Of a stretch of DNA of 32,000 bases, positions 2,897 through 31,917 are shown piece after piece. Position numbers and translations under genes: made by a program. Each line of letters opens with the position of its first letter. The first letter of the stretch is position 1. Source of the DNA: Chlamydiota bacterium (lineage in GTDB: Bacteria > Auribacterota > JACPWU01); NCBI GenBank assembly GCA_016196885.1, contig JACPWU010000032.1, positions 1 through 32,000 on the forward strand, in the 5' to 3' direction. The notes under the pieces are model-generated. The model did not search any database and was not told where the DNA came from. It saw only the letters and a list, made by a program, of their open reading frames with translations.

Positions 2897-4171
2897 GTGA
2901 AAACCATGGATCGTAAAAAAATTAAGACGGATGCTAAAAAATATCTTTTGAAAAAGTGCCGAATCTGCGCGAGCGACCGACTGTATACCTTTGTCTCTTT
3001 GGGGGCCATGCCTATTCCCAATGGATTTTTATCCAAAGAAGAGCTGGGGAAGAAAGAACCTTATTATCCTCTTGAGACCTGTGTGTGTGAATCTTGCTGG
3101 CTTGTTCAACTGAGTCATGTGATCCCTCCAGAACTGATGTTCAAAAACTACCTTTATATCCCTTCCACCTCCATCACCATGCTCGATCATTTCAGAAACA
3201 TGGCGGAGGAGGCCATTCAAAGTTATCGACTCAAACCCGGTGATCGAGTCATGGATATTGGGAGCAATGACGGGTCTTTGCTATCCTTTTTTAAAGAGCA
3301 AGAAATGAAGGTGTTTGGGATTGACCCCGCCTCTAATTTAGCTCAACTGGCTAGACTGAAGGGGATTGACACCCTGGATGACTTTTTCACGGAGGAACTG
3401 GCTAAGCGTGTGGTCCCAGAAAAGGGACATGCCAAGGTGATCACAGCCACCAATGTCGTCGCCCATGTCAACAACTTGCATGACCTTTGCGAGGGCGTGC
3501 GTCTTCTTTTAGACAAAGAGGGTGTTTTTATCTGCGAATTTCCATACCTACCCGATCTCATCAGCAAAAATGAGTTTGACACGATCTACCATGAGCATCT
3601 GTCTTATTTTTCCATTCAACCCCTCATCACCCTTTTTAAAAAACACAACCTCCATATCATCAACATCAAAAAAACATCCGTCCATGGTGGATCCATTCGT
3701 ATCCACGTTGCCCCCCAAAACTCGTCCCATCAACCGACAAACAGGGTTCAAGAATTCATACGCGAAGAAGCTTTAAGAAAAATAAACAGCCGATCCCTTT
3801 ACGAAGACTTCGGTCGTCGGGTTAAAGTGATCAAACGAGACCTGATTAACTATCTCAAGAAATTGAAGAACCAAGGGAAAAAAATCGTAGGATATGGCGC
3901 TTCAGCCAAGGGGAACGTACTCCTAAACTACTGCAACATCGGAACGAATCTCATTGAATATATTGTAGATTCTATCCCCTACAAACAGGGACGCTACACA
4001 CCTGGGACACACATCCCTATTCATGCAGAAAATAAACTGGAAAAAGACATGCCAGATTATGCCCTGTTAATGGCCTGGAATTTCGCAGAAGAAATTTTAA
4101 GAAAACAGGTGAAATATAGAGAAAAAGGTGGACAGTTTATCATCACCATTCCCTATCTACGTGTTGAATAA
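2897..4171 (+). CDS. Class I SAM-dependent methyltransferase of the Zn-ribbon plus C-methyltransferase family (TylCIII/NDP-hexose C-methyltransferase-like)
   Basis: N-terminal 4-Cys pattern CRIC...CESC, SAM-binding VMDIGSNDG, and a C-terminal C-methyltransferase-like region (GYGASAKGNVLLNY). The track start is GTG 2897. ATG 2906 (MDRKKIK) is the more likely start. Confidence 0.8.
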   Translation: MKTMDRKKIKTDAKKYLLKKCRICASDRLYTFVSLGAMPIPNGFLSKEELGKKEPYYPLETCVCESCWLVQLSHVIPPELMFKNYLYIPSTSITMLDHFRNMAEEAIQSYRLKPGDRVMDIGSNDGSLLSFFKEQEMKVFGIDPASNLAQLARLKGIDTLDDFFTEELAKRVVPEKGHAKVITATNVVAHVNNLHDLCEGVRLLLDKEGVFICEFPYLPDLISKNEFDTIYHEHLSYFSIQPLITLFKKHNLHIINIKKTSVHGGSIRIHVAPQNSSHQPTNRVQEFIREEALRKINSRSLYEDFGRRVKVIKRDLINYLKKLKNQGKKIVGYGASAKGNVLLNYCNIGTNLIEYIVDSIPYKQGRYTPGTHIPIHAENKLEKDMPDYALLMAWNFAEEILRKQVKYREKGGQFIITIPYLRVE

Positions 4172-15814: not shown

Positions 15815-16999
15815 TTATCGTGCTATTCTTTTTTCAAAAGCAGTCGAAAACCGCTCCAAAACATCTTTCCATTTAAAATGATTGATCACATATTGCCGAC
15901 CGCTTCTTCCCATTTTTTCCCTCAAGCCACTGTCTTTGAGAAAAAATTGAAGGGCCTCTTCAAACTCAAAATAATTCTTAAAGACAAGTCCCCCGTTAGA
16001 ATGTTTCGCATGGTATGAGGTCACATCACATTTTTCATTCACCAAAACAGGGGTCCCAGCGAGCCAGGATTCCATTAAGACAATCGAAAAACTTTCGTTG
16101 AGAGAGGGCTGACACGTCACCAAGGCCTCTCGATAAGCTTGAATCTTTTCTTCTTCACTTACAAAGCCTAAATCTAAAATGTCTTTTGAGAGACGCGCCT
16201 TTTCAGGCAAATCCCCGCTCCCCAAAAGCACCAGTTTTAAATCACCCGAAGAATGCCTCCGATAGGTTAAAAAATAATCGATCAAAAGAGGTGTGTTTTT
16301 ACCGTTTTCACGTCTGCCGACATAGAGAAGGAAAGGACCCTCCCCTAGTTTAAACTTTTCTCGAAAGGAATGGTCTTTAAAAGAAGGAAACGGGTCGAAC
16401 CCCATTCCAACGATGGCACACTTTTTTTCTTGAATTCCAAAAATTTTCTTCGCTAATTCTTCTTCTGGAAATGAATTGAAGAAAAACCCGCTCACACCTT
16501 GAAACATTTTCTTAAAAAGATTCACATAGGCATAGGGTTCCGGATGAAGACAGGGAATCAAAAAAGATTTTTCTAAAACTTTTTGAATGCCCTGATAGAT
16601 CATCCCAAAAAGATAGGGGGCAAAGATAAATGCGTCTCTTTCATTTTTACATTTTTCAAGATAATCATATAAAGATTTAGAATGGACACTGCCCGCCATC
16701 CAGATCACTTCTTCTTTTGAATTTAATGGCCACCCACGTTCCAATCGCTGCTGAAGTTGAATAAACCTACCTAAATTGACTCTCGGATCGACTTCAAAGC
16801 GAAAGACTCGAACGTTTTTAACGGTGCTTTTGCCCGCGGGAAAATCATTTGTCCATCTGACATGATCTTCAGAACAAGTGGTCAGAACCTCAACATCATG
16901 GCCTACACTGGCCAATCGCTCAGCCAAATTTTGAACCAGAATTTCTGCACCCCCTGCACGAGCAATATCATAGCGAGGAACCACAAAGGTTAGCTTCAT
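15815..16999 (-). CDS. GT4-like glycosyltransferase, tandem paralog 1
   Basis: MKLTFVVPRYDIARAGGAE N-terminus and C-terminal NESFSIVLMESWLAGTPVLV. The ATG forms an ATGA overlap with the upstream paralog's stop. Confidence 0.8.
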   Translation of the reverse strand: MKLTFVVPRYDIARAGGAEILVQNLAERLASVGHDVEVLTTCSEDHVRWTNDFPAGKSTVKNVRVFRFEVDPRVNLGRFIQLQQRLERGWPLNSKEEVIWMAGSVHSKSLYDYLEKCKNERDAFIFAPYLFGMIYQGIQKVLEKSFLIPCLHPEPYAYVNLFKKMFQGVSGFFFNSFPEEELAKKIFGIQEKKCAIVGMGFDPFPSFKDHSFREKFKLGEGPFLLYVGRRENGKNTPLLIDYFLTYRRHSSGDLKLVLLGSGDLPEKARLSKDILDLGFVSEEEKIQAYREALVTCQPSLNESFSIVLMESWLAGTPVLVNEKCDVTSYHAKHSNGGLVFKNYFEFEEALQFFLKDSGLREKMGRSGRQYVINHFKWKDVLERFSTAFEKRIAR

Positions 17000-18273
17000 T
17001 TCGTCGTTCGTCTTTCGTCGTTTGTTGTTCGTTGTTCGTTGTTCGTTGTTCGTTGAAGAAGATATCGTTCAAACGCTTTTTCAAAACGTTCTATGACTTT
17101 CTCCCACGCATAATTCTCTCGAACATAACGATCCCCTCTCTCTCCCATTTCTAAACGTAAAGATTCGTTATTCATCAATAAGTTAAGTGCCTCTTCAAAT
17201 TCAAAATAATTTGAGAAATAAAGACCCCCCCCACTTTGAACACAGTGGTATTTCGTCACTGCACATCCGCCGTGCACCAGAACGGGTGTTTTGAGAGACC
17301 AGGCTTCCATGATCACGATCGATAAACTTTCATTTAAAGAAGGCTGACACAGGGCAAGAGCCCCTTTCACCGCAGCCCATTTATCTTCTAAAGGAATAAA
17401 CCCAAGAGGAACAATCACATCGCGAAAAGGCTCCGAGATTTCTATTTCTCCTGAGCCTAAAAGAATTAATTTAAGAGAGGTCCCTGTATTGATAAAATAT
17501 TTCTTAAAATATTCGATTAAGAGCGGAACGTTTTTCCCCTTTTCCCATCGACCCACAAAAATCAGGTAAGGGCCTTGAATGCCATATTTTTTACGAAAGG
17601 CATCTGAAGAAACCTCAGGCAAGGGATCAAACCCCAGAGCAACAAGATGAGAGGAGTCACCCTTGAGTCCATAGAGCGCATGGGCCAGTTCAGACTCGGG
17701 CTGAGTATTGAAAAAGAGAGAGAGCGCTCTTTGAAACAAATCTTTCGTGATGTTCAAGTGAGCATAGGGCTCATCATGAAGACATGGGATTAAAATAAAT
17801 CGATCAGGAACTCTACGGCTGCCCTCATAACTAATTCCAAAAAGATAGGGCATAAAAACAAAGGCATCAAAATCTTTCGAACGATTTTGAATCGCTTGAT
17901 AAAGGCCAGAGCTATGAACGCTATTCTTAAGCCAAGCGGCCTCTTCTTCAGAGGTCAGCGTCAGTCCCAAATGCATTTTTCTTTGAAGATGCAGAAAAAA
18001 CAAAATATCTTCTTTGGGTTCTGTGGGGAAGCGATGAACGAGCACTCCACCCACCACTTCCTCTCCCGCCTGAAACACATTGCCCCAACGGTGATGATCC
18101 TGTGCACACGTGGTGAAGACCTCGACTGTGTGCCCCCGCACCGCCAAGCGACTGGCCACTTGAGCTGCATGAATTTCAGCACCTCCCGCTTGACCTGTTT
18201 CATATCGAGGGACAACAAATGCGATTCGAAATTTCGTCGTGAGTGGTGAGTGGTGAGTGGTGAGTAAAGACAT
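16996..18273 (-). CDS. GT4-like glycosyltransferase, tandem paralog 2. Its N- and C-terminal extensions are encoded by heptanucleotide repeat arrays.
   Basis: FRIAFVVPRYETGQAGGAE and NESLSIVIMEAWSLKTPVLV align with the downstream paralog. The extra N-terminus MSLLTTHHSPLTTK and the extra C-terminus QRTTNNEQRTTNDERRTTK are repeat-encoded. Confidence 0.8.
   Translation of the reverse strand: MSLLTTHHSPLTTKFRIAFVVPRYETGQAGGAEIHAAQVASRLAVRGHTVEVFTTCAQDHHRWGNVFQAGEEVVGGVLVHRFPTEPKEDILFFLHLQRKMHLGLTLTSEEEAAWLKNSVHSSGLYQAIQNRSKDFDAFVFMPYLFGISYEGSRRVPDRFILIPCLHDEPYAHLNITKDLFQRALSLFFNTQPESELAHALYGLKGDSSHLVALGFDPLPEVSSDAFRKKYGIQGPYLIFVGRWEKGKNVPLLIEYFKKYFINTGTSLKLILLGSGEIEISEPFRDVIVPLGFIPLEDKWAAVKGALALCQPSLNESLSIVIMEAWSLKTPVLVHGGCAVTKYHCVQSGGGLYFSNYFEFEEALNLLMNNESLRLEMGERGDRYVRENYAWEKVIERFEKAFERYLLQRTTNNEQRTTNDERRTTK
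17001..17055. repeat. Two adjacent tandem heptanucleotide arrays on the plus strand: (TCGTCKT)x3 then (GTTGTTC)x4
   Basis: Read directly as tcgtcgt|tcgtctt|tcgtcgt|tt|gttgttc|gttgttc|gttgttc|gttgttc|gttg. They lie in the 3' end of the GT4 paralog at 16996..18273, immediately upstream of the next paralog's ATG. Confidence 0.9.
18234..18265. repeat. Tandem heptanucleotide array TCGTCGT + (GTGAGTG)x~4 on the plus strand
   Basis: Read as gtgagtg|gtgagtg|gtgagtg|gtgagt at 18239..18265, directly after the ATG (18273) of the GT4 gene on the coding strand. The 15-mer tcgtgagtggtgagt recurs at 26016..26030. Confidence 0.9.
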
Positions 18274-18275
18274 TT

Positions 18276-19340
18276 TTACCTCATCAAAGGGTCCAATAAT
18301 TTTCTAAATTCTTGCGCCCATTTTCCGCGGTCAAAATCTTTTAACCTATTTCTTTGTTTCTGGATCACGGCTTGACGAAAATTTGCATCTTGATGAAGCA
18401 TCATCATCATTTCAGCAATGGCAGGGTGATCTTTTTTATGAAAAAGAATACCCGATCCCGCCAAGGTACCGGGCACTCCCGCTGCATGATAAGCCATCAC
18501 GGGCACATCAAAATACATGGCTTCTAGTAATGGGATACAAAACCCTTCATGCTCACTCATGCATAAAAACACATCCGCTAACCGGTAGTAAGCCACCAAA
18601 TTACATTGAGCAATGTGATTTGTAAAGAAGACATCTTGGAGATCGAGTTCTATCGTCAGGGCCCTTAAGTACGCTAAATACAAATCCATTCCCGCATAAG
18701 CCCCTACAATAAAAAGGCGCGCCAAAGGCTCGTACAGTTTCTTGAAATAATAAAAACTCAAAATCACATCATCAATTTTTTTGTTCGGAGCCACACGTCC
18801 CACAAAAACTAAATTAAAAGGTGATTTTTGATGTTGTCTCAAAATTTTTTTTCTCGGCGGGGTATTAAGGTCGTCCAAATTCAACATCAGAGGAAAAACC
18901 TGAGGGTTACTAAAGCCTGCTTCTTTTAATTCCTGAGCGTTGTAAGGAGAAACAGCCAACGTTAGATCTGGAACAGACGCAAGCTCGAGAAGCTCTTCCC
19001 TCCCTTTTCGTAAAACCACTGCCTTTTCCTCTGAAATGGAATGAAAATATTTTGCAGGTGTAATGTTGTGATAAATCAAAACTCTTTTTTCGGAAAGACT
19101 CTTAAAAAAATCCGACATCTCGGATCCTACTGAAAAATGAAAAATAGCAATATTGCTGGGGTCTCTCTTGTAAGTCTTGACATCCAAACATCGTCCAGGG
19201 ACCAAGGTGTTCACGTGACGCCCGACGCCATAGATTTCAGAGCGCACACCCCAACTGCGAATCACTTTTTGAAGTTCAAGCGAGAAATTGCTGATGGCAT
19301 CGCCATCCATAAAACCTGAAACAAATTGGGAAATTTCCAT
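18276..19340 (-). CDS. GT4 glycosyltransferase
   Basis: FVGRVAPNKKIDDVI and EGFCIPLLEAMYFDVPVMAYHAAGVPGTLAGSGILF. Its TAA stop lies 2 nt before the next gene's ATG. Confidence 0.8.
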   Translation of the reverse strand: MEISQFVSGFMDGDAISNFSLELQKVIRSWGVRSEIYGVGRHVNTLVPGRCLDVKTYKRDPSNIAIFHFSVGSEMSDFFKSLSEKRVLIYHNITPAKYFHSISEEKAVVLRKGREELLELASVPDLTLAVSPYNAQELKEAGFSNPQVFPLMLNLDDLNTPPRKKILRQHQKSPFNLVFVGRVAPNKKIDDVILSFYYFKKLYEPLARLFIVGAYAGMDLYLAYLRALTIELDLQDVFFTNHIAQCNLVAYYRLADVFLCMSEHEGFCIPLLEAMYFDVPVMAYHAAGVPGTLAGSGILFHKKDHPAIAEMMMMLHQDANFRQAVIQKQRNRLKDFDRGKWAQEFRKLLDPLMR

Positions 19341-19350
19341 GGTAAAACCT

Positions 19351-19443
19351 CAGAAGACAGAAGTCAGAAGACAGAATGAACAAGGAAGAGATTGTTTTTT
19401 ATTCTGAATTCTGGATTCTGACTTCTGGATTCTGTCTCCTGTC
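19351..19443. repeat. Heptamer-arm hairpin element, copy 1
   Basis: Left arm cagaaga|cagaagt|cagaaga|cagaat (19351..19377), a 23-nt loop, and a right arm of attctga/attctgg-type units (19401..19443). A 31-nt block at 19383..19413 is identical to 21844..21874. Confidence 0.85.
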
Positions 19444-19878
19444 TTTCGTTAAAAAATCCAATCTTTCATGAATTTCTTTAAATCTTGTATCCATATGCTT
19501 TCGCAGGGACAGAAAGGCATTCGTGACCTGACAGTTAAATTCTTTTTGTTGGCTAAAGAGGCGATAGGTATAAAATTTTAGGAGTTTCCAGACAACTTTT
19601 TTCGCCAAAACTTCAAACGATCCCAGAATGCCACCCTCATTGATAATTTCAAAATCTCCAATGTTCACATCGCAAGTTCTTTGAAGGATTTCAATATAGT
19701 AATTAAGAAACTCTTCCTCGGTGGAAATATTCTCCACTTCTAATCGAGAAATTCCGGACAGATCATACTTTTCATAAACCCCTGCCTTCTTTTTTTCTTC
19801 GATATTTGCGCGTATCTTTCCCATAATCTTTTCAATATCTATGCCCTCTGCACCGATTTGAAACTCTTTATCTTGCAT
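19399..19878 (-). CDS. Hypothetical protein, probably helical or coiled-coil, glycan-cluster associated
   Basis: 159-aa ORF with no catalytic motif I recognise. The last ~14 codons (RRQNPEVRIQNSE) are encoded by the right arm of the hairpin repeat. Confidence 0.5.
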   Translation of the reverse strand: MQDKEFQIGAEGIDIEKIMGKIRANIEEKKKAGVYEKYDLSGISRLEVENISTEEEFLNYYIEILQRTCDVNIGDFEIINEGGILGSFEVLAKKVVWKLLKFYTYRLFSQQKEFNCQVTNAFLSLRKHMDTRFKEIHERLDFLTKDRRQNPEVRIQNSE

Positions 19879-19893
19879 ATAGTCTCCTATGGG

Positions 19894-20295
19894 CTATTCA
19901 ACCCAATCTTCAATAACAAGATGTCGAACTCTTCTGAACTCTTTGACATTGTGCGTTACTAAAATACCATCATGGGCCATCACGGTCGCCGCGATCATTA
20001 AATCATTGGGACCCATGGGAAGACCTCTCTCCTCTAAATCAGCGCGAATTTTTGAGTAAAATACGGCGGCCTCAGCCCCAAAGGGAATAATCTCATAGGG
20101 ATTCAGAAATTGATTAATCTCTTTGGCTTTCTCACGAGGATTTTCACTTTTCTCAACACCGACAAGAAGTTCAGCCATAACAACGGACGGAATCTTGACT
20201 CGGTCAGGAGCCATGCCTTGTAAGCACTCACACAGATTTAAGGAAAGTCCCTTTAGAAAAAATATGCAGGAGTCTGCATCCAGGCAATACTTCAT
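19894..20295 (-). CDS. vapC: PIN-domain toxin VapC
   Basis: MKYCLDADSCIFFLKG (N-terminal Asp), VVMAELLVGVEKS, and GPNDLMIAATVMAHDGILVTHNVKEF. An ATGA-type overlap joins it to the upstream small ORF. Confidence 0.85.
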   Translation of the reverse strand: MKYCLDADSCIFFLKGLSLNLCECLQGMAPDRVKIPSVVMAELLVGVEKSENPREKAKEINQFLNPYEIIPFGAEAAVFYSKIRADLEERGLPMGPNDLMIAATVMAHDGILVTHNVKEFRRVRHLVIEDWVE

Positions 20296-20522
20296 AATTT
20301 AGCTCTACGCACATCGAGGCTAAGATCCGGTTGGGGAGGTCGTTCAAATTTCTCATGACGTAAAACTCCAAAAAGATCAAAATATCCTTTCGGCCACTCA
20401 TGACAAAGCGCCTTTTCAAGCTTTAACTTCACCCACCTGGATAAGGATATTTTTTCCAGCTTGGCAGCTCTCTCAATTTTTTTTAACATCACTGGATCAA
20501 GATAAATGTTTAAATGAGACAT
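20292..20522 (-). CDS. VapB-type antitoxin, ribbon-helix-helix-like
   Basis: 76 aa. LNIYLDPVMLKKIERAAKLEKISLSRWVKLKLEKAL resembles an RHH/CopG fold. A strong SD (GGAAGGAGG) is present and the ORF overlaps vapC. Confidence 0.7.
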   Translation of the reverse strand: MSHLNIYLDPVMLKKIERAAKLEKISLSRWVKLKLEKALCHEWPKGYFDLFGVLRHEKFERPPQPDLSLDVRRAKL

Positions 20523-21790: not shown

Positions 21791-21799
21791 TAACACCCC

Positions 21800-21895
21800 G
21801 AAGACAGAATCCAGAATTCAGAAGTCAGAAGACAGAATAAATGAGGAAGAGATTGTTTTTTATTCTGAATTCTGACTTCTGACTTCTGTTTTCTG
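21800..21895. repeat. Heptamer-arm hairpin element, copy 2 (between wzm and wzt)
   Basis: The arms are built of NCAGAAN heptamers. By my alignment 24 of the 28 arm positions nearest the loop are complementary. The loop shares the 31-nt block aggaagagattgttttttattctgaattctg with copy 1. Confidence 0.85.
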
Positions 21896-21899
21896 TTAT

Positions 21900-24546: not shown

Positions 24547-24632
24547 ATTTATGACTCCTTTGATAGAAATATCAATTTTAATGATCCTTCGAGATCATCG
24601 TGTGCGATGAAAGTTCTTCCCATCGTGTTTTT

Positions 24633-24704
24633 TTGTAGTCGCCCGATTCATCGGGCAATCCATGCAAGGGGCACACGGCAGCCCCATAAATGGGGAGACT
24701 ACAA
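24633..24704. repeat. About 70-nt three-stem palindromic repeat, copy A
   Basis: Closing stem TTGTAGTC...GACTACAA, inner hairpins GCCCGAttcaTCGGGC and CCCCATaaATGGGG. Its reverse complement aligns along its full length with 29233..29300. Confidence 0.85.
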
Positions 24705-24723
24705 AATGAGCTTCACTTTCATA

Positions 24724-24837
24724 GCAAAAATCAAAATGACAAAGCAAAATTTAAAATTTTTCTCTTGCAAGGGCGCTAGAAAATTTTTGAATTTTGACAT
24801 GTTATTTTGCATTTTGATTTTTGGACTTTGATTTTCG
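24724..24837. repeat. A/T-rich inverted repeat with 7-nt periodic arms. Possible diverged member of the heptamer-hairpin family.
   Basis: Left arm caaaaat|caaaatg|acaaagc|aaaat. Right arm attttgc|attttga|tttttgg|actttga|ttttcg. About 21 complementary positions with a 5-nt bulge, and the 53-nt loop contains a nested palindrome. Confidence 0.55.
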
Positions 24838-29659: not shown

Positions 29660-29690
29660 GAAGCGATCATAACGAAGGTTACATTCGAAA

Positions 29691-29721
29691 CACCCTCTCA
29701 AATTTGAGAGGGTGTTTTTTT
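29691..29721 (+). terminator. Rho-independent terminator of csp
   Basis: CACCCTCTCAAAtttGAGAGGGTG hairpin followed by TTTTTTT. Confidence 0.85.
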
Positions 29722-29780: not shown

Positions 29781-31835
29781 ATGGGATGTGCTATGCCATT
29801 TGAAAAATTACGTGTCGGCCTCTCTTTAAAATTCATTCTCTTAACCACCCTTTTGATTGTACTGACCTCCTTGACATTGGGCCTTTTCTTTTTAAGAAGC
29901 AAAGAAAGGGATTATCTTGAATTCCTCAAGTCTCAGGGGATTTCCCTTTCCCGCACCCTGGCCTTTAACAGCGAGTATGGCGTTCTGACAAGCAATCGAG
30001 AGGTGCTCTCGAAGCTTGCGCAGGGCGTTCTTCAGGAAGCGGATGTTTCTTACTGCATCATTCATGATGGATCGGGACAAATCCTCGTCGAACTTTACCG
30101 AAGCGGCCCTCTCAAATTAAATCCGCCCGACTGGATTCTCGGAAACGCCCTTCAACTCAAACTCCCCGGGGAAGAGGCTCGCTCGCAAGATATCCCGACA
30201 GAAAATGGAACTTTAAAGGGCTTTGACGCCGCCACCCTTGTTAAAACCCGCCGCCTGGCCAAGACCCATGAAAGGGTCGAACTTCTGCCCGGTTATCTCG
30301 GGATTTTGGAACAAATCAAAAGAAGGCTCAAAATCGAGGGCCAAATCATCGAGGAAAAAATCGGGACTGTGCGAGTCGGGGTATCCCTCATCAACATCAA
30401 CCACGCCATTTCTAAAATCAAAAAGGCCATGGGCATGATCACCCTCGTGGTCGCCGTCGTAGGAATGCTCATCACCATTCTCTTGGTTCAATTGATCATC
30501 CAACCCATCCGGAGATTGGTTTACGGCACCCGGCAAATCGCCCGGGGGGACTTGAGTTATGAAGTACATGTCAATTCTAGAGATGAGATCGGAGAACTGG
30601 CAACTTCTTTTAATCAAATGACCATTTTCCTGCGCCGCTCCCATCGCCAAGTGGAAGAATATCAAAAGAATTTGGAACAAATGGTGGAGGAGAGAACTCA
30701 CAAGTTAAAAGAGACAGAGGCCGAGCTGATCCGTTCAGAAAAATTTGCAGCCATTGGAGAATTGATCACCGGGATCACGCATGAACTCAACAATAAACTC
30801 ACCCCCATCCTGGGCTACGCCCAAATTTTTAAAACGATGAAGCTCGATGAAAAAATTGCCAGATACATGGACATCATTGAGGAATCGGCGCTGAATGCCA
30901 AAAGAATCGTTGAATCCCTTCTGAAATTCTCAAGGAACACCCCTCCTCAAAAAGCTTATTGTAATCTCAATGACAAAATGAAAGAGACGCTCTCTCTTAT
31001 CGAACCCCATGTGCACAAAAACAACATTCAACTCAAAGTAGAGTTGGATCCCCAACTGCCCAGGACCATGGCGGATCCTTCCTTGATCGGCCAGGCCTTT
31101 CTCAATATCCTAAACAATGGCTGGCAGGCCATGGAGGAAAAAGGCGGAGAATTAGGGGTCAAGTCTTACAGCAAGGATGGAAAAATATTTTTCTCTGTGC
31201 AAGACAAAGGCATTGGAATTGCGAAAGAACATTTAACTAAAATTTTTGATCCCTTTTTCTCGACCAAAGAAGTGGGAAAAGGCACTGGGCTTGGGCTTTC
31301 TATTTCCTATGGCATTCTTCAAGGTCATGAAGGAAATATTCATGTGGAAAGTGTCCTTCATCAGGGATCCATTTTTACCATCGAATTACCCATCAAGACC
31401 CTTGAACATACCTCCCCTGAATACGTTACTTCCAAACAGGAAGAGACCCCTGTTAAAAAGGGCAAAATTCTGATTATCGAAGATGAGCCTTCTGTGCAAA
31501 ATTTGTTGGTGGACGCACTGGAGAATCATCACGACATTGCAACCGCCATGGATGGAAGAGAAGGCCAAAGAATCATTCAAAGAGAACGATTTGACCTTTA
31601 TGTGATTGATTTAAGAATGCCCTACATGGACGGGAGAGAACTTTACGCCTGGATTGAGAAAGATTTTCCGAGAGAGGCCAAAAAGGTGATTTTTATCACG
31701 GGTGACACCTACGACAAAAAAATACAAAACTTTTTAAGTTCTGTCCAACAACCCCAACTCAACAAACCCTTCCAAATCGTAACTCTTCAAAGCTTGGTCT
31801 CGCAAATGTTGGAGAAGACAGCGGACAGAACCTAG
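29781..31835 (+). CDS. Hybrid sensor histidine kinase (TM - extracytoplasmic sensor - TM - HAMP - HisKA - HATPase_c - receiver)
   Basis: HAMP PIRRLVYGTRQIARGDLSYEV...EIGELATSFNQM, H-box ITHELNNKLTPILGY, N box/G boxes NILNNGWQA, DKGIGI and GKGTGLGLS. The receiver has ILIIEDEP, DLYVIDLRMPYMDG and KPF. ATG 29793 is an alternative start. Confidence 0.9.
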   Translation: MGCAMPFEKLRVGLSLKFILLTTLLIVLTSLTLGLFFLRSKERDYLEFLKSQGISLSRTLAFNSEYGVLTSNREVLSKLAQGVLQEADVSYCIIHDGSGQILVELYRSGPLKLNPPDWILGNALQLKLPGEEARSQDIPTENGTLKGFDAATLVKTRRLAKTHERVELLPGYLGILEQIKRRLKIEGQIIEEKIGTVRVGVSLININHAISKIKKAMGMITLVVAVVGMLITILLVQLIIQPIRRLVYGTRQIARGDLSYEVHVNSRDEIGELATSFNQMTIFLRRSHRQVEEYQKNLEQMVEERTHKLKETEAELIRSEKFAAIGELITGITHELNNKLTPILGYAQIFKTMKLDEKIARYMDIIEESALNAKRIVESLLKFSRNTPPQKAYCNLNDKMKETLSLIEPHVHKNNIQLKVELDPQLPRTMADPSLIGQAFLNILNNGWQAMEEKGGELGVKSYSKDGKIFFSVQDKGIGIAKEHLTKIFDPFFSTKEVGKGTGLGLSISYGILQGHEGNIHVESVLHQGSIFTIELPIKTLEHTSPEYVTSKQEETPVKKGKILIIEDEPSVQNLLVDALENHHDIATAMDGREGQRIIQRERFDLYVIDLRMPYMDGRELYAWIEKDFPREAKKVIFITGDTYDKKIQNFLSSVQQPQLNKPFQIVTLQSLVSQMLEKTADRT

Positions 31836-31917
31836 CGTACAGCGGTCAGCGGTCAGCGGATAGAAAAAAACTTCATTCTACTGAACGCTAAACGCTGTCC
31901 GCTGTACGCTATTTTTT
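31817..31917 (+). terminator. Terminator-like hairpin built from heptanucleotide repeats (NNCAGCG units), followed by T6
   Basis: gacagcg|gacagaa|cctagcg|tacagcg|gtcagcg|gtcagcg, a loop, then ctgaacg|ctaaacg|ctgtccg|ctgtacg. AGCGTACAGCGG (31834..31845) pairs perfectly with CCGCTGTACGCT (31899..31910), followed by ATTTTTTAT. Confidence 0.7.

Follow-up and report, generated by a model that had tools for sequence, protein, structure and literature searches.

An imperfect palindrome whose two arms are tandem heptanucleotide repeats, here called hp1, lies inside a polysaccharide operon in the window analysed, a stretch of 32,000 nucleotides (nt) of contig JACPWU010000032.1. The hairpin is real, folds stably and exists in at least two homologous copies. 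The comparisons reported below place hp1 and its second copy, hp2, in a widespread class of extragenic palindromes with arms made of heptamer arrays of the STRR type (short tandemly repeated repetitive sequences). Taken alone, hp1 is one more intercistronic repeat hairpin, and it is of interest mainly for what it reveals about inverted heptamer arrays: these are neither peculiar to Xanthomonas and its G-quadruplexes nor an oddity of cyanobacteria, and form a cross-phylum class situated just past stop codons. Our favoured reading, to which we give a probability of about one in two, is that such an element would work as a stem-loop between cistrons in the mRNA, similar to the repetitive extragenic palindromes (REPs), either as a stability barrier or as an RNase III site.

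The operon (glycosyltransferase / Wzm-Wzt) has all its genes on the minus strand. In transcription order these are GT4, deacetylase, Wzm, (hp2), Wzt, a VapBC-like pair, ORF159 (ORF, open reading frame), (hp1), GT4, two glycosyltransferase (GT) genes and a flippase-like gene. The co-directional operon proposed by the first-pass annotation, which had been made from the letters alone, is thereby borne out. Its view that the host is not a cyanobacterium also holds, since the proteins of the window match those of an NCBI groundwater metagenome-assembled genome (MAG) named 'Chlamydiae bacterium' (proteins MBI1884584.1 and MBI3266526.1, locus tag HYS08_). The element hp1 covers 19351-19441 (about 95 bases), with arms (CAGAAKN)4 and (NMTTCTG)6. 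The features of the two copies are as follows.

19351..19378, minus strand: hp1 arm nearest the GT4 gene, plus-strand units CAGAAGA CAGAAGT CAGAAGA CAGAATG
19351..19378, minus strand: the same hp1 arm as the 3′ arm in the mRNA, AUUCUGU CUUCUGA CUUCUGU CUUCUG
19379..19399, minus strand: hp1 loop, 21 nt, plus-strand AACAAGGAAGAGATTGTTTTT
19400..19441, minus strand: hp1 5′ arm in the mRNA, plus-strand units TATTCTG AATTCTG GATTCTG ACTTCTG GATTCTG TCTCCTG
19338..19351, minus strand: Shine-Dalgarno-like GAGG (19351-19348), 7-nt spacer and GT4 ATG (19340-19338)
21798-21839 and 21861-21895, minus strand: hp2 arms, loop AATGAGGAAGAGATTGTTTTT
19383..19413 = 21844-21874: exact 31-nt block, the longest identical run between hp1 and hp2

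The heptamer arms were thus present as first described, and the 31-nt block, reported earlier as identical in the two copies, proved to be both exact and maximal. The second copy (21804-21896, or 21798-21895 counted from arm to arm) is 89% identical to hp1 over 85 nt. The two lie about 2.4 kb apart and have a common loop, with 21 nt between the arms, and their arrays hold 4 and 6 units per arm in hp1 and 6 and 5 in hp2. Indeed, the motif CAGAAKNCAGAAK, with at most one mismatch, was found 17 times in the window against 1.24 expected, and all 17 matches fall within hp1 and hp2.

The two copies are placed differently with respect to the flanking genes. In the RNA, the UAA stop codon of ORF159 (19401-19399) lies at the 5′ edge of the hp1 loop, and the last 14 residues of the protein (DRRQNPEVRIQNSE) are encoded by the hp1 5′ arm. 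On the other side, 10 nt separate the end of the stem (19351) from the GT4 ATG, and this ATG and its GAGG lie outside the stem, the first G excepted. The earlier geometry, with a 10-nt distance to the GT4 start and about 14 final codons of the upstream gene supplied by an arm, is therefore correct. Between them, wzm (stop 21902-21900) and wzt (starting at ATG 21787 or 21790, or at GTG 21796) leave a spacer of 103 nt, which hp2 fills. This element begins 4 nt past the wzm stop and, unlike in hp1, the upstream stop codon comes before the hairpin.

Minimum-free-energy (MFE) folding of the minus-strand RNA, which the first-pass annotation had put forward as a check, gave stable structures for both copies, at -36.2 kcal/mol (z -3.3) for hp1 and -43.5 kcal/mol (z -7.3) for hp2, and in neither case was any of 200 shuffles as good (0/200). 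The hp1 stem is A/U-rich. It had also been suggested that arms made of repeats could pair in several registers. This is possible on paper, but a single register holds nearly all the computed pairing: about 23 pairs of the hp1 ensemble belong to it, against 1.2-1.3 pairs for each register shifted by 7 or 10 nt, and multi-register pairing was minor for hp2 as well. Searching Rfam with the hairpin returned no match at gathering score, and at E <= 1 generic hairpin matches only (for example MIR5998, 25 bits against a gathering score of 180). An attC site was also considered and rejected on anatomy.

The anatomy of hp1 could evoke a translational gate, in which the stem would hide the GT4 ribosome-binding region until ribosomes ending ORF159 melt it. 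Indeed, with the ORF159 stop at the hairpin apex, a terminating ribosome must open the entire 5′ arm, and the stem ends just 10 nt before the ATG. However, the GAGG and the AUG are outside the stem, which argues against simple gating, and in hp2 the upstream stop is located before the hairpin and not inside it. Moreover, many members of the class lie between convergent genes and have no cistron after them that could be gated, and some related operons have a spacer of 5-17 nt without any hairpin. We consider such a gate very improbable.

Related operons and other heptamer arrays of the window

Eight syntenic operons were found through homologues of ORF159, which makes nine with that of the window. 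Their ORF159-GT4 junctions carry the following.

Window: CAGAAKN hairpin (hp1)
L137: CAGAAKN hairpin homologous to hp1, loop different, -24.2 kcal/mol, z -3.0
L136: remnant, left arm only
L131: CAAAAAT-armed hairpin, -40.7 kcal/mol, z -6.1
L135: GTTGTAG-armed hairpin, -32.8 kcal/mol, z -3.3
L132: direct array of four CCAACGA units, its end 4 nt upstream of the ATG
L141: 5-nt spacer
P0098 contig: 17-nt spacer
L142: 34-nt spacer

Within one conserved operon, a single junction thus displays three hairpin unit families and array remnants across nine operons, and the tails of the ORF159 homologues diverge precisely at the start of the array. At the other site, the orthologous wzm-wzt spacer measures 23 nt in L132, 29 nt in L135 and 14 nt in L142, and the hairpin is absent in all three. 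As these spacers are short and hairpin-free, hp2 is probably an insertion.

The window itself contains other arrays of this kind. Period-7 arrays are its commonest tandem repeat type, with six heptamer array sites and five unit families in 32 kb. Two of the sites are hairpins with the architecture of hp1, and two others are direct arrays that extend coding sequences.

24725..24835, no strand assigned: hp4, CAAAATN / NATTTTG arms
31829..31912, plus strand: hp3, CAGCGGT / ACGCTGN arms, -42.6 kcal/mol
17000..17055, minus strand: direct array of eight (CAACGAA)-type units, encoding the C-terminal tail QRTTNNEQRTTNDERRTTK of the GT 16996..18273
18236..18265, minus strand: direct array (CTCACCA)x4, in frame and closely following the start ATG (18273) of the GT 16996..18273

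The presence of hp3, hp4 and the direct arrays makes hp1 one instance of a habit of this genome. The (CAACGAA)x8 array abuts the ATG (16999) of the next GT gene, and the (CTCACCA)x4 array adds LTTHHSPLTT to the GT 16996..18273; at the point matching the latter, L131 has AATCCGC x4.5, also in frame, and L132 and L135 have no array. The hp3 hairpin starts at the stop codon of a histidine-kinase gene (29781..31835). The hp4 loop (TTGCAAnnGCGnTAGAAA) is found again in L131 at 3058-3205, in a related MAG (GCA_016178055.1) and at a non-orthologous junction, and the corresponding intergenic region of L132 and L135 has no hp4. A third copy of the CAAAATN-armed hairpin, with the same arms and a partly different loop, was seen in L131 at 588-735.

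The variation of the junctions among the nine operons, the empty wzm-wzt sites and the occurrence of the hp4 loop at a non-orthologous junction together argue that the hairpins of this lineage are inserted, dispersed repeats with a fast turnover. On the same comparison, a few unit families recur at different junctions, and the hairpin is indispensable at no single site.

Such dispersal could suggest a miniature inverted-repeat transposable element (MITE), with the arms serving as terminal inverted repeats on which a transposase from another part of the genome would act in trans. The two copies 2.4 kb apart with one and the same loop, the empty sites in relatives and the multi-copy families with common arms and loop on single contigs (see below) would fit this scheme, and the REPIN-like GTAG pair at 24631-24706 shows that small mobile palindromes exist in this genome. 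However, comparison with the empty sites revealed no target-site duplication at either hp1 or hp2, the number of units differs between copies and between the two arms of one copy, and direct arrays of the same unit families occupy equivalent sites. There is, furthermore, no transposase gene within the window. We therefore hold a MITE to be improbable.

In the GTAG pair, which resembles a REPIN doublet, a palindrome GTAGTCGCCCGATTCATCGGGC faces an inverted one (reverse complement of GCCCCATAAATGGGGAGACTAC), each headed by GTAG. The doublet has a folding energy of -40.2 kcal/mol (z -5.2) and is not found in the orthologous intergenic region of L132 or L135. It suggests that a system of the RAYT type (REP-associated tyrosine transposase) may exist somewhere in the genome.

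Heptamer-armed hairpins across bacteria

The first-pass annotation presented hp1 as the founding example of an unrecognised family, and this could not be maintained. Inverted pairs of heptamer arrays have already been described in Xanthomonas (PMC4692102), a comparable hairpin exists on a Nostocales plasmid, and a metagenome scan for CAGAAKN-type arms around any loop of 15-45 nt retrieved at least 120 loci. The kind to which hp1 belongs is known but little studied, and it is the unit and the host phylum that differ from the published cases.

Among the metagenome matches listed, to which all the metagenome figures below refer, the arrays always extend beyond the probe, with medians of 4 units per arm, 21 nt for the loop and -57.6 kcal/mol for the MFE. 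The host contigs range from 33% to 71% GC, and the carriers that could be named through exact or >=90%-identical proteins are Lentisphaerota, Deltaproteobacteria, Gammaproteobacteria, Candidatus Gottesmanbacteria (of the Candidate Phyla Radiation, CPR) and, within the Acidobacteriota, Pyrinomonadaceae and Thermoanaerobaculia. At the two variable positions of the units, the two arms of one hairpin are complementary at 0.71, whereas arms exchanged between hairpins reach only 0.49 +/- 0.02 (>90 hairpins). Strict mirror symmetry of the units is only modest, with 39.5% in the loop-anchored register against about 31% in shifted ones.

The position of these hairpins favours gene 3′ ends. On crude ORF calls, and with the other spacers of the same contigs as expectation, the hairpin-bearing spacers were 46 co-directional, 24 convergent and 6 divergent, for 50.5, 13.0 and 12.5 expected (p = 0.0015). 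The median distance from the stop codon to the hairpin is 7 nt, and a T-run follows the hairpin in 16 of the 61 oriented cases (26%), an A-run in 2 of them (3%).

This last bias brings in the possibility of an intrinsic (Rho-independent) terminator or an attenuator inside the operon. A long stable stem right after a gene and the 3′ T-run in 26% of the class members listed point in this direction, as does hp3, which is followed by ATTTTTTAT and on that account looks like a terminator. However, the 3′ flanks of hp1 and hp2 on the transcribed strand, AGGUUUUACCAUG and CUUCGGGGUGUUAAUG respectively, are not U-tracts, and the downstream genes are part of the same conserved operon. Furthermore, a terminator scan reports neither copy, though it finds a canonical terminator at 29687-29718, from which it appears that the organism does use U-tract terminators. 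A canonical terminator was thus rejected for both copies, on the A/U-rich stem and on 3′ flanks (AGGUUUUACC and CUUCGGGGUG) devoid of a U-tract, and we find termination or attenuation at hp1 and hp2 hardly credible.

The same metagenome contigs carry many other heptamer arrays, often as inverted pairs, including arrays of CCCTAGT/CCCCAGT units, which we take to be the classical STRR1 unit. When hp2 was compared by BLAST with 72,556 plasmids, matches were obtained in Nostocales only. The CAGAAGT/CAGGAGT unit family is found on these plasmids, once as a hairpin: on a plasmid of Halotia branconii, CAGGAGT/CAGAAGT arms fold at -49.3 kcal/mol (z -4.95), with an inner boundary, CAGAATAAATGA, identical to that of hp2. 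A search with the peptide encoded by (CAGAAGT)n brought up small spurious ORFs lying over long arrays in Moorena, Microcoleus, Pleurocapsa, Galbibacter (sp. EGI 63066), other Bacteroidota, Verrucomicrobiota and Blastocatellia.

Scanning IMG/VR yielded 14 loci with the same arm design. Each multi-copy set among them has common arms and a common loop, for example (GCAGAAT)n GAAAGACTTTTGA (ATTCTGC)n, and in L149 and L153 each copy checked is found 7-25 nt past a stop codon in a row of co-directional genes. On these contigs (L153, L149, and L145 with L154), 4-5 CAGAAKN-armed hairpins were counted in 15-21 kb, and five of their proteins had no match in PHROG. It follows from the multi-copy sets that genome-specific families with a fixed loop, like that of hp1 and hp2, exist elsewhere. 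The conserved loop put forward earlier thus stands for such families (hp1/hp2, hp4 with L131, the IMG/VR sets) but not for the class: among the 120 metagenome hairpins listed, the best resemblance to the hp1/hp2 loop scores 17, against 22 for shuffled sequences, and as the metagenome loops do no better than shuffled ones there is no class-wide consensus.

The two copies could also be the product of a local duplication in one operon, without a wider family. In favour of this, none of the metagenome loops listed resembles that of hp1/hp2, and the loop 20-mer AGAGATTGTTTTTTATTCTG has only four matches, all by chance, in 185,579 GTDB species-representative genomes; these four come from unrelated organisms and none has heptamer arms. 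However, L137 has an orthologous CAGAAKN hairpin, at least 120 metagenome loci and 14 IMG/VR loci have the same arm design, and two other heptamer-armed hairpins (hp3 and hp4) are found in the same window. For the arm design, such a duplication is already contradicted by these findings. Of all the explanations considered, a purely local duplication is the one we find hardest to accept.

Several published systems share part of this anatomy. The closest are the 70-75 inverted pairs of GGGAATC heptamer arrays per genome in Xanthomonas campestris and X. axonopodis (Rehm et al. 2015, PMC4692102), most of them transcribed, which lie at a mean of 28 nt from the upstream ORF and of which 7-8% are between divergent genes (PMC4692102). 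Like these, the hairpins of our class consist of two convergent tandem heptamer arrays, close together and able to form a stem-loop, with about 4 units per array, and are intergenic, close to where the upstream ORF ends and seldom between divergent genes (6 of the 76 listed). In Xanthomonas, moreover, the number and sequence of the units vary between related species, whereas the type, single array or inverted pair, tends to persist. The differences lie in the units, CAGAAGA, CAGAAGT and CAGAATG here, which contain no G-tract, for GGGNATC there, in the common loop of two local copies, in the Chlamydiota-labelled MAG host and in the overlap with a coding end. As the CAGAAKN units are without G-tract, a G-quadruplex reading is inapplicable here and cannot be general.

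The STRR sequences of heterocystous cyanobacteria were reportedly described as short tandemly repeated repetitive heptanucleotides by Mazel et al. in 1990. The likeness to them is in the tandem 7-nt units, the several unit families per genome and the location at gene boundaries. Heptamer repeats are also present near start codons in Nostoc PCC 7120 (bioRxiv 10.1101/2022.06.06.494920), and TTTTGAA, the unit of the window at 24785-24835, is a Nostoc heptamer. Unlike in STRR, which are defined as direct arrays, the arrays are here in inverted pairs, and the host is not a cyanobacterium. The TAACTGA direct repeats of Beggiatoaceae, cyanobacteria and Bacteroidetes (MacGregor 2015, PMC4679880), proposed to be protein-binding sites upstream of start codons and comprising one inverted case among 170 sets (PMC4679880), are likewise heptamer arrays in spacers, patchily distributed across phyla; many stop within a few nt of the following start codon, and some run into the last codons of the preceding ORF. 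In contrast to the hairpins, they are direct and made of another unit.

The REP, BIME (bacterial interspersed mosaic element) and REPIN sequences have the same location bias, between co-directional and convergent genes and downstream of coding regions (PMC3733652, PMC3116915), and are also small dispersed extragenic palindromes. REPs are transcribed, and a function as RNA hairpins that stabilise mRNAs or end transcription has been proposed for them (PMC3733652). Their stems are single palindromes of 20-40 bp with a GTAG or CGTC tag, linked to RAYT transposases (PMC3733652, PMC3116915), whereas the arms of hp1 and hp2 are tandem heptamers devoid of such a tag, and no RAYT was seen in the window. 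Finally, in the hmw1A 5′ untranslated region (5′-UTR) of Haemophilus influenzae, a transcribed heptamer array, (ATCTTTC)n, is likewise an arm of a long RNA hairpin, which is an RNase III substrate and whose cleavage changes expression (Rapun-Araiz et al. 2025, PMC12721329). Unlike hp1, that hairpin combines one repeat arm with a G-rich other arm and belongs to the 5′-UTR of a single locus, in adhesin phase variation.

A possible role in the mRNA

We infer the transcription of the hp1/hp2 region and every effect at the RNA level considered here. Under our favoured reading, the hairpins would insert into the short gap between a stop codon and the next ribosome-binding site, and hp1 and hp2 would be transcribed within the polycistronic mRNA of the glycosyltransferase / Wzm-Wzt operon. 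The RNA is predicted to fold into an imperfect stem of about 30-38 bp, which begins at or just past the upstream stop codon and ends 10-15 nt before the next start, so that the Shine-Dalgarno sequence is left free. This stem might then act like a REP or BIME as a barrier to 3′ exonucleases, blocking the 3′-to-5′ decay of the upstream segment, as an entry site for RNase III, or as both. In either case the neighbouring cistrons would no longer be coupled in stability and dosage. Where a 3′ U-tract follows, as in hp3, the hairpin may in addition terminate transcription. Ribosomes that terminate can also be stalled by a stable hairpin lying no more than about 15 nt from the stop codon, which has been reported for the REPs of E. 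coli. Precedents for an action in the mRNA are the REPs, with their similar location bias (PMC3733652), the transcribed arrays of Xanthomonas (PMC4692102) and the H. influenzae hmw hairpin cut by RNase III (PMC12721329).

Several of our observations weigh against such a role. Three of the related operons (L141, L142 and the P0098 contig) get by with a spacer of only 5-34 nt at the ORF159-GT4 junction, which indicates that the hairpin is dispensable there. The base-pair covariation that the first-pass annotation had looked to as a test did not appear: with RNAalifold, the three homologous copies (hp1, hp2 and L137) showed a compensatory change at 0 of 31 pairs. To this must be added the failure to find the hp1/hp2 loop 20-mer, beyond its four chance matches, in the GTDB representatives, and the crudeness of the metagenome gene calls (longest ORF with a GC3 weight, GC3 being the GC content at third codon positions), by which 17 hairpins were scored as 'inside' ORFs.

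The main rival, which we regard as unlikely though well short of negligible, is that the hairpins are a neutral or selfish by-product at the DNA level, without RNA function. Arrays would arise through polymerase slippage, and template switching at quasi-palindromes or gene conversion would copy the arms and spread the unit families; the products would survive only where they are harmless, that is, in spacers just past stop codons. The ORF159-GT4 junction, empty in three relatives and occupied by unrelated unit families in others, is what such a process should leave, and direct arrays are indeed tolerated in frame in coding ends (17000-17055 and 18236-18265). The absence of compensatory changes among the three homologous copies is also expected under neutrality, and the scarcity between divergent genes could reflect selection against promoter disruption, as argued for Xanthomonas (PMC4692102). 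However, the listed hairpins hug stop codons instead of spreading over the spacers, they are enriched between convergent genes and followed by T-runs far more often than by A-runs, and the complementarity of the arms is kept across more than 90 of them. Slippage alone, furthermore, would leave unaccounted for the recurrence of a few unit families at different junctions and in distant phyla.

A bolder proposal, which we consider doubtful, would see in these hairpins a single pan-bacterial class made and moved by a dedicated machinery that targets the few bases past stop codons, with unit families (CAGAAKN, CAAAATN, CAACGAN and others) copied from junction to junction, perhaps even between phyla. 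If true, this would explain the presence of one unit family in genomes of 33-71% GC and at least 6 phyla, the replacement of unit families at one orthologous junction and the contigs with one copy per 3-4 kb. It would also suggest an answer to the old question of the over-representation of 7-nt repeats in bacteria. More generally, if the class shares a mechanism of origin or an RNA function, this would bear on the excess of 7-nt repeats in bacterial genomes and on the punctuation of operon mRNAs in poorly studied phyla.

Other features of the operon

The conserved protein ORF159 (19399..19878; about 150 aa, 159 aa in the window) has no Pfam match. Its gene lies between those of Wzt and GT4 in 8 of the 8 relatives examined, and it may be an uncharacterised component of the O-antigen/exopolysaccharide (EPS) export operon. 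The VapBC-like pair (19894-20522), between wzt and ORF159, is formed by a 76-aa ORF (20292..20522) and a PIN-domain gene (19894..20295) that overlap by 4 nt. ORF15x overlaps the end of wzt in L132 and L142 and follows wzt within 13-39 nt in L135 and L141, so that the pair is a lineage-specific insertion.

The neighbouring GT genes at 15815..18273, of 394 and 425 aa, are paralogues with repeats 1232-1235 nt apart, and this tandem pair is kept in the related operons. Two short Logan contigs that carry the GT4 gene, L001 (SRR12113416) and L002 (SRR12113387), both from groundwater samples, end exactly inside the hp1 block on one side and inside the CTCACCA array on the other, and heptamer elements therefore fragment k-mer assemblies. 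These elements have a practical cost, since they break short-read assemblies and add spurious tails to predicted proteins.

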